The notes under the pieces are model-generated. The model saw nothing but the letters and a program-made list of their open reading frames with translations. It was not told the origin of the DNA and made no database searches. From Escherichia coli (GTDB lineage Bacteria; Pseudomonadota; Gammaproteobacteria; Enterobacterales; Enterobacteriaceae): 64,000 nucleotides of DNA. A program made the translations under genes and the position numbers. Position 1 is the stretch's first letter; every line of letters begins with the position of its first letter. Positions 10,960 through 16,849 of the stretch are shown here, piece after piece. The stretch lies in NCBI RefSeq assembly GCF_003790525.1, contig NZ_CP033635.1; one strand, given 5' to 3'.

Positions 10960-11186
10960 ATGGCGGCTGTAAAAATTTCAGGCGTGCTGAGGGACGGAAC
11001 CGGAAAACCGGTACCGGGATGCATTATTGAGCTGAAAGCGAAGAGAACCAGCGAGACAGTCATCGCCACGACAGTGGCTTATGGCATGCCGGAAGAGACG
11101 GGGAGTTACAGTATGGATGTGGAGCCAGGAATATACAGGGTGACACTCAATACAGAAGGTTACCGTCCTTCGTATGTGGGAGATAT
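10960..11186 (+). pseudogene. stf: side tail fibre gene, 5' fragment (interrupted by IS66-family insertion)
   Basis: MAAVKISGVLRDGTGKPVPGCIIELKAKRTSE... resembles lambda Stf N-terminus; reading frame broken at 11187 by the IS end. Confidence 0.8.
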
Positions 11187-11263
11187 GTAAGCGGCTCGTC
11201 AGAACCGTATTGATATTTACTGAGAGCTCGAGCCTGTTTAGGATTCTGTGTAAATGCCTTTTC

Positions 11264-12472
11264 TCAGAAGTGACCGTCCAGGCGGTCACCGAACTCGATA
11301 ATAAAGCGGCTCATTGCCATTCGCCAGTCCTTCAACGGCATCGTCCATTTCTGGGACGCAGACTGGATTGCCAGCCACACCACTTTTTTCACCGAGTCGT
11401 CTGTCGGGAACACTTTACGCTTTTTGATCGCATGGCGGATCACGCTGTTTAGCGACTCGATGGCATTCGTCGTATAGATCACTTTGCGGATGTCCGTTGG
11501 ATAAGCGAAGAACGTGGCAAGATTCGGCCAGTTAGCCTGCCAGCTTCGGCTTATCTGAGGATAGCGACTGTCCCAGGCCGCAGCGAACGCTTCCAGTGCC
11601 TGCTGACCTGCCTCTTCCGTGGGAGCCTGATAAATCGCTTTCAGGTCGCGAGTGACGGCTTTGTAGTCCTTCCATGACACGAAGCGCAGGCTGTTGCGCA
11701 CCATATGCACGATGCATAACTGGATGCGGGCCTTCGGATATACTGTGTTGATGGCATCCGGGAAGCCTTTCAGGCCATCCACACAGGCGATGAGGATATC
11801 GTTCAGACCGCGGTTTTTCAGTTCAGTCAGCACATTGAGCCAGAACTTCGCCCCTTCATTTTCGGCCAGCCACATACCCAGCAGTTCCTTCTGACCTTCG
11901 ATATTGATGCCCAGTGCCAGGAACACCGATTTGTTGATGACGCGACTGTCCTGCCGAACTTTCAGGACGATACAGTCAAGATAAACAATGGGGTAAACAG
12001 CATCCAGTGGTCTGTTTTGCCATTCTACAACCTGCTCCATCACGGCATCGGTGACCTTTGATATCAGTGCCGGTGAAACATCTGCGTCATACAGTTCTTT
12101 GAACGCAGTAGCTATCTCACGGGTGGTCATCCCTTTGGCATACAACGAGAGGATCTGGTTATCCATCCCGGTAATACGGGTCTGATTTTTCTTTACCAGT
12201 TGTGGTTCGAAGGTACCGTCACGATCGCGCGGAGTACGCAGTTCCAGTGGACCGTCGCCTGTGATAACGGTCTTTGTGGAATAACCGTTGCGGGAGTTAG
12301 CTCCTGGTCTGGACTGATTTTTCTCATACCCAAGATGGTGTGTCATCTCTGCATTGAGAGCGGCTTCAACGCTGAGCTTTTTCAGCAGCCGATCAAACTG
12401 ACTGAGGTCTTCAGGGGTTTTGAGGTTTTTGGCCAGTTCGTTAGCCAGAGCCTGTAACTGTTTTTCGTCCAT
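11264..12472 (-). CDS. tnp: IS1414 transposase (IS256/mutator family)
   Basis: 402-aa ORF; second copy at 20501-21709 differs by one residue. Confidence 0.9.
   Translation of the reverse strand: MDEKQLQALANELAKNLKTPEDLSQFDRLLKKLSVEAALNAEMTHHLGYEKNQSRPGANSRNGYSTKTVITGDGPLELRTPRDRDGTFEPQLVKKNQTRITGMDNQILSLYAKGMTTREIATAFKELYDADVSPALISKVTDAVMEQVVEWQNRPLDAVYPIVYLDCIVLKVRQDSRVINKSVFLALGINIEGQKELLGMWLAENEGAKFWLNVLTELKNRGLNDILIACVDGLKGFPDAINTVYPKARIQLCIVHMVRNSLRFVSWKDYKAVTRDLKAIYQAPTEEAGQQALEAFAAAWDSRYPQISRSWQANWPNLATFFAYPTDIRKVIYTTNAIESLNSVIRHAIKKRKVFPTDDSVKKVVWLAIQSASQKWTMPLKDWRMAMSRFIIEFGDRLDGHF
11641..11757 (-). CDS. astA: EAST1 heat-stable enterotoxin, embedded out of frame in the IS1414 transposase gene
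   Basis: Minus-strand translation MPSTQYIRRPASSYASCIWCATACASCHGRTTKPSLAT then stop; matches recalled EAST1 (4 Cys); same strand as tnp, different frame. Confidence 0.85.
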   Translation of the reverse strand: MPSTQYIRRPASSYASCIWCATACASCHGRTTKPSLAT

Positions 12473-12530
12473 AAATTAACCTTCATTTGATGCTGGATTG
12501 AACATATCAAAATCAGGCAATTACACAAAT

Positions 12531-14130: not shown

Positions 14131-14478
14131 TTATATACGGATTCCAGCGCGTTCCGTTCGTTTCGGGTGCTTCCAGTCGATGCCCTCGAGAAGCATGGAT
14201 AACTGAGCCGGAGTAAGGTGCACCTTGCCGTCACGGGTGACTGGCCAGACGAAGCGGCCCCGCTCTAGGCGTTTGGTGAAGAGGCACAGTCCGTCACTGT
14301 CAGCCCACAACACTTTTATCTGGTCACCCCGGCGTCCGCGGAAGATGAACAGGTGTCCGGAGAACGGGTCATCCTTCAGGACGTTCTGAACTTTTGAGGC
14401 CAGGCCGTTAAAGCCATTTCGCATATCGGTGATACCTGCAACCAGCCAGATACGCGAACCTGCAGGGAGAGATATCAT
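14131..14478 (-). CDS. tnpB: IS66-family Orf2 / TnpB
   Basis: 115-aa ORF MISLPAGSRIWLVAGITDMRNGFNGLA... typical IS66 Orf2. Confidence 0.85.
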   Translation of the reverse strand: MISLPAGSRIWLVAGITDMRNGFNGLASKVQNVLKDDPFSGHLFIFRGRRGDQIKVLWADSDGLCLFTKRLERGRFVWPVTRDGKVHLTPAQLSMLLEGIDWKHPKRTERAGIRI

Positions 14479-15155
14479 CAGTGGCTGCTCCCTTTTATTT
14501 CGCGGATAAGTGTCTGTAATAACGCCGGCGTCAGTTTACCTTTAAGCCTGAGAGTTCCGGCCGGCAGAACCAGCTCACAACACAGACTGTCGGACGGTGT
14601 ATTTATCTGCTCTGGTTCCTGTGCGGGGGCCGGGATTTTATTATCCGGCTCCGGCGTTAACGTCACGGGAAGCAGTGCCGGCATATTTTTTCCGGAAGGC
14701 AGCAGGCCACCTTTCCGGTATTGATGGCGCCAGTTGAAGAGCAGGTTATCGTTGATTCCGTTTTCCCGGGCGATCTGCGCCACACAGGCTCCGGGCTGCA
14801 GTGACTGCTCCACTAAGGCGATTTTAAACTCATAAGGGAAGTTGGGCCGCCGGGGACGTTTTTTTACCACGGGGGCTTCGGATATAACGGTGCTTTCAGG
14901 ACGTACGACTGGTACCGTGGAAAATTGTCCGTAAAGGCAGGCATCAAGTTCCTGCTCCGACATGCCTGCGGGCAAAGGCCACGAAAGGCCAGCTCTCCGA
15001 AAGCGCACGAACATACTACAAACTGTTGATTTTGATACACCCAGGCGACGCCCGGCCACAACCCGGGGTAAATGTTCTTCAAAGTGAAGACGTAAAGCTT
15101 CAGTGATCCAGGTCCGGTGTTTCATACGATAGTGTCCATTAAAAATGATGGACAT
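14478..15155 (-). CDS. tnpA: IS66-family Orf1 / TnpA (HTH protein; start codon uncertain)
   Basis: 225-aa ORF overlapping tnpB start; helix-turn-helix-like segments. Confidence 0.65.
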   Translation of the reverse strand: MSIIFNGHYRMKHRTWITEALRLHFEEHLPRVVAGRRLGVSKSTVCSMFVRFRRAGLSWPLPAGMSEQELDACLYGQFSTVPVVRPESTVISEAPVVKKRPRRPNFPYEFKIALVEQSLQPGACVAQIARENGINDNLLFNWRHQYRKGGLLPSGKNMPALLPVTLTPEPDNKIPAPAQEPEQINTPSDSLCCELVLPAGTLRLKGKLTPALLQTLIREIKGSSH

Positions 15156-15216
15156 TATTTTTGTAGAGCCGGAGGAAACAGACCAGACGGTTTAAATGAG
15201 CCGGTTACGGAGATAT

Positions 15217-16849
15217 CGTGGTCAGGGAGGATTCTTCACCGGGAACACTGAATAAATTTCTGATGGAGATGGAAGATGCTCCTTATTATCCGAAGGCGTT
15301 GTCAGAGCTGGAGGCTGTGGTGCAGTCCATACTGCACAGAGCAGAGTCCGCGGCATCTGAGGCGGAGGAAGCCCGGAAACGAGCAGCATCTGCCCGGGGA
15401 CCACGAGGAGAGAAAGGGGATACCGGCGCTCGTGGTGAAAGAGGCATTACCGGGCCACAGGGGCCAAAAGGTGAAACAGGAGCACGTGGCCAGGCAGGAC
15501 CACAGGGACCAAAAGGTGAAACAGGTGAACGCGGTCCGGCAGGTCCACAGGGACTAAAGGGGGATACAGGTGAACGCGGCCCGGCAGGTCCTCAGGGACC
15601 AAAGGGTGAAACAGGTGCACGCGGCCCGGCAGGTCCACAGGGACTAAAGGGGGATACAGGTGAACGCGGCCCGGCAGGTCCACAGGGAGCAAAGGGCGAA
15701 ACAGGTGCACGTGGTCCGGAAGGCTCTCAGGGTCTGAAGGGAGAAAAGGGTGAGCGAGGAGAAAAAGGCCCTAAGGGGGATAAAGGAGATCCGGGAGGTC
15801 CACAGGGACCAAAAGGTGAAACAGGTGAACGTGGTCCGGCAGGTCCACAGGGACCAAAGGGCGATACAGGTGAACGTGGCCCGGAAGGTCCACAGGGAGC
15901 AAAGGGTGAAACAGGTGAACGCGGCCCGGCAGGACCACAGGGACCAAAAGGTGAAACAGGTGAACGCGGTCCGGCAGGTCCACAGGGACCAAAAGGTGAA
16001 ACAGGTGAACGCGGGCCGACAGGTCCACAGGGACCAAAGGGCGATACAGGTGAACGTGGCCCGGAAGGTCCACAGGGAGCAAAGGGTGAAACAGGTGAAC
16101 GCGGCCCGGCAGGACCACAGGGACCAAAAGGTGAAACAGGTGAACGCGGTCCGGCAGGTCCACAGGGACCAAAAGGTGAAACAGGTGAACGTGGTCCGGA
16201 AGGTCCTCAGGGACCAAGAGGAGAGTCAGCCCGTGGACAACTGCTGAATGGTGATCTGAACCGACTGGGACGAGTGACCGATCAGGGTGATTATTATCAG
16301 CCATCAGACAGTGGGGCTACACGAGAAAATAATTATCCGATTCAGAGAGCGGGTTATCTTCAGGTAAGAGTTGGTGCATGGGGATATTGCCAGCATGAAT
16401 ATACAACCTGGAACCCACCACGAAAGTTCGTAAGAACTGTTACTGGTAATTTTACCGGTAATGGCCCCTGGTCTGAATGGAAAGAGCTGGGAGCCCTGGG
16501 GGAGCGTGGTCCACAGGGACCAAAGGGCGATACAGGTGAACGCGGTCCGGCAGGTCCACAGGGGCCAAGAGGAGAAGCGGGGCGGCCAGCGAGCGTCGGA
16601 AGTGTTTATTCCGTGGGGTCTTATGTTCTGGGGATCATAGAACGAAATCATGAGATAACAAATACCCGTGAAATACCCGGGTATCGTATCAGACAGGCCG
16701 TTATTGTGTCGTCGTCATCGGATAAACTTACAGATATCCGCTTTTTATTTGGCAATCCTATGCTTGGTACATGGATGTTATGCACAACTAACATGACGGT
16801 GAATAATATCAGTGGGACGATTTGGGGCCTGTTTCAGAGAATACGGTGA
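15217..16849 (+). pseudogene. stf: side tail fibre gene, 3' portion (collagen-like); in frame with 10960-11186 once the IS and one repeat copy are removed
   Basis: Joining 11186 to 15217 restores ...[20 protein letters not shown]..., which resembles lambda Stf (...YEDSQPGTLNDFL...); long Gly-X-Y collagen-like repeats. Confidence 0.8.
15398..16228 (+). repeat. collagen-like Gly-X-Y triplet repeat region in stf (short second block about 16498-16585)
   Basis: Repeated [18 protein letters not shown] units with 45-bp nucleotide periodicity; causes spurious antisense ORFs. Confidence 0.85.

Follow-up and report, generated by a model that had tools for sequence, protein, structure and literature searches.

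Interruption of a collagen-like side tail fibre gene in an Escherichia coli prophage by an ISCro1-like element and IS1414, very probably in two steps

A side tail fibre gene (stf) in a lambdoid prophage of Escherichia coli is interrupted by two insertion sequences (IS), one nested in the other. The gene lies in a 64,000-nucleotide stretch of contig NZ_CP033635.1 (assembly GCF_003790525.1), hereafter the window. The outer element is ISCro1-like and belongs to the IS66 family, and the inner one is IS1414, of the IS256 family. We consider it very probable that this gene, which codes for a collagen-like fibre, was inactivated stepwise, by ISCro1 and then by IS1414. In a first step, a 2,699-bp ISCro1-like element would have entered stf at codon 75/76, in the N-terminal PfN domain, duplicating GGAGATAT. 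In a second step, taken in one sub-lineage, IS1414 with its astA gene would have entered 43 bp inside the left end of ISCro1, duplicating GAGAGCTC. This order is supported by comparison with sequences outside the window, because alleles are found there with ISCro1 in stf and no IS1414, and not because of the nesting alone.

The 5' part of stf (10960-11186, plus strand) runs from codon 1 to the second base of codon 76 and falls within PF08400, the PfN domain. The 3' part (15217-16849, plus strand) codes for the rest of PfN, two collagen regions, and the middle and C-terminal domains. Between them, the outer element with IS1414 included spans 11187-15208 (4,022 bp). It is bounded by copies of GGAGATAT at 11179-11186 and 15209-15216, and this 8-bp target-site duplication corresponds to a single copy in the uninterrupted stf of E. 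coli TUM1886 (L004) and strain 135 (L002). IS1414 occupies 11230-12544 (1,315 bp, minus strand), between copies of its own 8-bp duplication, GAGAGCTC, at 11222-11229 and 12545-12552. Only one GAGAGCTC is present in the intact ISCro1 copies of AR_0085, enterotoxigenic E. coli (ETEC) H10407 and contig L005. With boundaries fixed from other genomes in this way, the chance of an exact 8-bp flanking repeat is about 1.5e-5 per element. The initial annotation had reported both duplications, the terminal inverted repeats of the IS66-family element and the nesting of IS1414 inside it, and re-inspection finds each of them at the coordinates it gave.

As it stands, the 5' open reading frame (ORF) reaches 11190 and yields 76 amino acids (aa), ending in YVGDM, and the stop codon is supplied by the IS end. 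When 11187-15216 is deleted in silico, 10960-11186 and 15217-16849 join into 1,860 nt, that is, 619 codons plus a stop, with no internal stop codon and with the same junction that had been predicted. Mis-joined repeats, with no nested structure in the cell, have to be considered here, as both ISs are multi-copy and the 45-bp tandem repeat of the collagen region is difficult to assemble. However, such an assembly artefact would have to produce two perfect 8-bp duplications at independently set boundaries and a reading frame that is restored exactly on excision. An independent public assembly, L009, is also the same through stf, the left inverted repeat (IRL) of ISCro1 and IS1414. We regard the artefact as extremely improbable.

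The initial annotation had read the order of the two insertions from the nest. The order finds support in contigs L005, L006 and L010, although the nest alone does not establish it. Nesting shows only that IS1414 entered a copy of ISCro1, since the two could already have been combined when they moved into stf. Outside the window, the exact 76-aa truncated Stf, a product that arises only through the insertion of ISCro1 in stf, is present on at least 10 public contigs, from NCBI assemblies, Human Microbiome Project (HMP) and Joint Genome Institute (JGI) metagenomes, and Logan assemblies. ISCro1 without IS1414 is found in GCA_040713815.1 (L005), which matches the in-silico IS1414-free sequence at 284/285 positions, in an HMP metagenome (L006, 91/92) and in JGI 3300008491 (L010, 125/126). 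The nested form of the window is found in GCA_003686615.1 (L009), with 173/173 positions across stf-IRL-IS1414 and 1789/1789 upstream. In the IS1414-free carriers, the upstream prophage DNA has 99.7% identity to the window, with 4-7 differences in 1.5-2.3 kb. The ISCro1 insertion is therefore common to slightly diverged lineages, and the IS1414 insertion belongs to one of them.

The reverse order would have IS1414 enter ISCro1 elsewhere, after which the 4,022-bp composite moved whole into stf. Nesting by itself is compatible with this. The composite has both ISCro1 inverted repeats and tnpA, tnpB and tnpC intact save for the last residue, and the transposase could come in trans from other ISCro1 copies. 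At least three independent samples, however, carry the same stf::ISCro1 junction without IS1414, so that a composite-first history needs either an independent insertion at the same site or a precise excision of IS1414. Moreover, a composite with this junction was not found in 5,426 genomes, in the exact-protein index or in the JGI metagenomes, and we find the reverse order highly improbable. The individual searches gave the following picture. Neither the left stf-ISCro1 junction nor the IRL-IS1414 junction occurs in any of 5,426 complete E. coli genomes. The nested IRL-IS1414 junction had no match among JGI metagenome contigs, and the left stf-ISCro1 junction none in IMG/VR. An exact look-up of the chimeric 526-aa TnpC found none on record. 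H10407, strain 135, AR_0085 and TUM1886 had been candidates for full-length matches to the region, and proved to have other arrangements once aligned.

Some observations weigh against the entry of ISCro1 first and IS1414 second. The right ISCro1-stf junction has no match in the JGI metagenome contigs, and the intermediate is documented at the left junction only. The view also covers 64 kb of the source genome, where further copies of ISCro1 with IS1414 inside are possible. Lastly, nucleotide 8 of ISCro1 is G in the window and in L009, and A in L005, L006, L008, L010 and L011; in L005, L006 and L010 it accounts for the one mismatch to the IS1414-free sequence. Due to this difference, a point change or a gene conversion must be assumed on one of the branches; G and A are both seen at this position among other ISCro1 copies.

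The same nucleotide, which lies in IRL, could speak for two separate ISCro1 insertions at the same 8-bp target in stf, with IS1414-free alleles that are not ancestral to the nested one. The 4-7 upstream differences between the window and the IS1414-free carriers would fit such a history, as would the attraction of ISCro1 to the neighbourhood of stf seen in AR_0085 and strain 135. On the other hand, position, orientation and 8-bp duplication are the same in IS1414-free and nested alleles. The remaining ISCro1 insertions near stf are at other positions, which speaks against a single-site hot spot, and one single-nucleotide change is easily gained after the insertion of ISCro1. Two separate insertions thus seem very unlikely to us, and a single entry of ISCro1, followed by IS1414, is the reading that we keep.

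As for the outer element, IS66-family members are described (ISfinder; Han et al. 2001) as having imperfect terminal inverted repeats that begin with GTAA, and as duplicating 8 bp of target. The element in the window starts with GTAAGCGG and finishes with CCGGTTAC. Its inverted repeats are imperfect, GTAAGCGGCTCGTCAGAACCGT against GTAACCGGCTCATTTAAACCGT, with matches at 17 of the 22 outermost positions. The left end, with IRL, is cut off by IS1414 and occupies 11187-11229 (minus strand). It is identical to the ISCro1 end of AR_0085 at 43/43 positions, and a distance of 1.3 kb now separates it from the remainder of ISCro1. The body and the right end, with the right inverted repeat, follow at 12553-15208 (minus strand). 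Subtracting IS1414 and one GAGAGCTC copy leaves 2,699 bp. Full 2,699-bp copies in other genomes, labelled “IS66-like element ISCro1 family” by the Prokaryotic Genome Annotation Pipeline (PGAP), have 97.9-99.85% identity to it, and the name ISCro1 is used here for likeness to these labelled copies and not to the ISfinder or Citrobacter rodentium reference.

Three genes are found on the minus strand of the outer element: tnpA (14478-15155, 225 aa; NF038385, 296 bits), tnpB (14131-14478, 115 aa; NF033819, 129 bits) and tnpC (12531-14111, 526 aa; NF033517, 476 bits). All three score above the curated NCBIfam cut-offs for IS66 TnpA, TnpB and TnpC. IS1414 was inserted just upstream of the original tnpC stop codon, which remains in the left end at 11217-11219 (complement). 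Because the tnpC ORF now runs into IS1414, the C-terminus of TnpC is altered from Q to RACT: the protein ended in VDLSSQ (523 aa) and now ends in VDLSSRACT (526 aa). Both ISCro1 ends and all three ORFs are still present despite IS1414. These profile matches, an IS256 transposase match in the inner element, and PGAP labels on copies with 98-100% identity bear out the families to which the two elements had been assigned in the initial annotation.

In the case of the inner element, IS1414 has the ends GAGCCTGT... and ...ACAGGCTC. Its inverted repeats are also imperfect, with 8/8 matches at the first positions and about 20/30 overall. The transposase gene is complete (11264-12472, minus strand, 402 aa) and reaches 428.8 bits with the IS256 model NF033543, for a cut-off of 150. 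Inside this gene, in another frame, lies an intact astA ORF of 38 codons, for EAST1 (11641-11757, minus strand). Its offset from the start of the transposase gene is 715 nt, which is no multiple of 3. The nested copy has 99.2% identity to the IS1414 of H10407 and 100% to that of TUM1886, both annotated as IS1414 family. An astA embedded in the transposase gene is the described IS1414 arrangement, and intact IS1414/astA copies are amplified to multiple copies within strains (PMC12585946; the source paper for IS1414 is McVeigh et al. 2000, as cited there).

A second complete IS1414 is present in the window at 20467-21781 (minus strand), where it is flanked by copies of an 8-bp duplication, GAGAGAAT, and carries an intact astA at 20878-20994 (minus strand). 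It lies 7.9 kb downstream of the nested copy, in the same orientation, and differs from it by 1 nt. In TUM1886, where stf is intact, the IS1414 that is 100% identical to the nested one occupies the corresponding position and is also flanked by GAGAGAAT. The copy at 20467-21781 is therefore older than the events in stf. It is plausibly the donor of the nested copy, although other identical copies may exist in the genome. The two copies, as direct repeats, bracket 7.9 kb that hold the ISCro1 body, the 3' part of stf, and tfa-like, Eib-like adhesin and sigma-like genes. There was no recombination between them, because both duplications are intact.

IS1414 and ISCro1 are also found interrupting each other in other sequences. 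In the last 33 nt of L007 (Logan SRR31139820_656), the opposite end of IS1414 follows nucleotide 5 of ISCro1 (GTAAG, then GAGCCTGTACATAG...), these five nucleotides being equal to window 11187-11191. This one 33-nt contig end hints at an independent IS1414 insertion in the opposite orientation, at a distance of 38 bp from that of the window, for which a target duplication of about TATGTAAG is expected. IS1414 insertions in the first 43 bp of stf::ISCro1 are thus at nt 43/44 (window and L009) and at nt 5/6 (L007). In H10407, an IS1414 is found next to an ISCro1, 90 bp beyond the left end of the latter. The reverse nest is seen in L013 (1501-5035, Br_190_kylling), where a complete ISCro1 interrupts IS1414 around nt 268-276 and is flanked by a duplication. 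A preference of IS1414 for the left end of ISCro1 as a target, or local hopping within the prophage, may be entertained as an explanation, and we think it unlikely. We also weighed a conserved composite of ISCro1 and IS1414 in circulation, and rejected it because L003, L012, L013 and L014 show other arrangements, with the two side by side or nested differently.

The gene under these insertions holds as a lambda-stf-like, collagen-containing side tail fibre gene, judging from domain content and homology, and the collagen-like identity given to it in the initial annotation is confirmed. Rejoined Stf matches PF08400 (prophage tail fibre N-terminal) at residues 3-133 (E 6.7e-40), has seven Pfam Collagen matches, and its best PHROG is “tail fiber protein”. 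Collagen region 1 has 44 + 48 Gly-X-Y triplets, with a single break, GDPGGPQG, at residues 266-273, and its DNA is a 45-bp tandem repeat in 17.4 copies. An 87-aa non-collagen domain, the 11 triplets of region 2 and an 86-aa C-terminal domain follow, for a total of 103 triplets. Pfam gave no match in the C-terminal 86 aa. The 543-codon remainder of stf has a GTG start with GGAG upstream, and is without the PfN domain. Exact look-ups of the rejoined 619-aa Stf and of the 543-aa 3' ORF found neither on record.

Aligned end-to-end with intact homologues, rejoined Stf has 95% identity to that of TUM1886 (457 aa) and 97% to that of strain 135 (586 aa). The three proteins do not differ at residues 1-167, a stretch that includes the insertion point. 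The variation in length (457, 586 and 619 aa) corresponds to differing numbers of collagen repeats. The Stf of TUM1886 (L004 12551-13924) is also without the entire 87-aa middle domain (window 16197-16460), a loss that is likely due to recombination between the two collagen-coding repeat regions. As this gene is intact, the fibre seems tolerant of the loss of that domain.

The surroundings of stf are those of a lambdoid tail module. A homologue of J, the central tail fibre (5982-9698, plus strand, 1,238 aa, PHROG 31), is followed by two small ORFs, a Cor-like lipoprotein gene, stf, and a DUF4376/PHROG 1141 gene, and TUM1886 has the same order. In a coiled-coil-like segment of the J homologue, a unit of about 58 aa occurs three times in tandem. 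The J proteins of TUM1886 (1,180 aa) and L005 (1,169 aa) are shorter than the one in the window (1,238 aa), and J thus also varies in its repeat number. The Cor-like ORF (10642-10887, plus strand, 81 aa, PHROG 1119) bears a weak likeness to the Cor superinfection-exclusion protein, with a match just under the cut-off (NF047972, 28.7 bits for a cut-off of 31). A terminator-like hairpin comes after it (10923-10938). Downstream of stf, the tail-fibre-associated gene (16864-17439, plus strand, 191 aa) is assigned to DUF4376 from the PGAP annotation of its homologues, and to PHROG 1141, “tail fiber protein”. Next, a YadA-like/Eib-like trimeric autotransporter of 477 aa is encoded at 18164-19597 (plus strand), in which a unit of about 33 aa occurs four times in tandem. 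Its position just downstream of the tail-fibre genes is that of eib in P-Eib prophages, and its homologues in TUM1886 and strain 135 differ in length.

Only the tail module of the prophage is within the window, and the ORFs of this module are open. The neighbours of the prophage are an ompW remnant and yciE (the ompW/yciE-trp locus). The same holds for TUM1886, whose prophage has 99.5-99.9% identity to window 1-11186. Chromosomal DNA in the window, with the trp operon, topA and yciQ, has 100% identity to E. coli SMS-3-5 and its relatives. The neighbourhood of stf accumulates ISCro1. In AR_0085, a copy (L001 3292-5990) precedes the start of stf by about 300 bp, and strain 135 has ISCro1 on each side of the stf-tfa module (L002 1-1376 and 4929-7592).

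Regarding consequences, in lambda Stf is attached to the tail through its N-terminal domain. The break falls inside this domain, and therefore no functional side fibre is expected from either the 76-aa stub or the 543-codon remainder. The loss of side tail fibres would be a sound conclusion from the gene structure. Adsorption rate or host range may shift in such a side-fibre-less prophage, if it is still inducible. The insertion may also have a polar effect on the downstream gene at 16864-17439. A promoter and terminator scan of 10600-17600 gave counts not above those of shuffled sequence, and therefore has nothing to say on read-out or polarity.

For annotation, the two stf fragments are one pseudogene, and ISCro1 and IS1414 are a nested pair. 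The case is also a worked example of dating nested insertions, in which alleles found elsewhere, rather than the nest, give the order. Furthermore, the nested IS1414 gives the prophage a second intact astA (EAST1), and the direct IS1414 pair, with the Eib-like adhesin gene in between, could give rise to a deletion or move together as a composite transposon.

Compared with known systems, the fibre has the PF08400 PfN domain in common with lambda Stf and with the EPcl collagen-like fibres (Ghosh et al. 2012, PMC3368898). Long EPcl collagen domains are typically interrupted by G-X-P-G-G-P-X-G (PMC3368898). Stf shares with them the long Gly-X-Y regions and this break, found once, in region 1. As here, the repeat number of EPcl proteins varies between strains. 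PCoil and PfC domains were searched for in rejoined Stf and none was detected, the collagen beginning straight after PfN, and for this reason it is not EPclA or EPclB. It is EPclC-like in layout only. The EPclC example, P-EibA ORF-401, also adjoins an eib gene, and its alignment with Stf is limited to residues 4-369, whereas the C-terminal part did not align. Among related fibres in Shiga toxin (Stx)-converting and plaque-forming Escherichia phages, none covers at least 80% of rejoined Stf.

As for the insertion sequences, ISCro1 was named first in Citrobacter rodentium ICC168 and is widespread in E. coli. It expands and mostly sits on mobile elements (PMC3072379). The copy in the window has the same tnpA, tnpB and tnpC genes, GTAA... 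ends and 8-bp duplication, and is unlike known ISCro1 in having IS1414 43 bp from its left end and the last TnpC residue replaced. The full copies in our comparison all measure 2,699 bp, in contrast with the 2,824 bp published for the ISCro1 of EC958 (PMC8764528). IS1414 shares the IS256-type transposase, the embedded astA, the imperfect inverted repeats and the 8-bp duplication with its known copies, with no structural difference.

Taken as a whole, this is an ordinary insertional inactivation, by known elements (ISCro1 and IS1414) of a known kind of gene, with all families already known. Lambda PaPa is likewise lambdoid, with an inactivated side tail fibre gene, although the cause there is reportedly a frameshift (Hendrix & Duda 1992) and here an IS insertion. 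That phage is reportedly fully viable without a functional Stf, and the prophage described here is therefore not necessarily defective.

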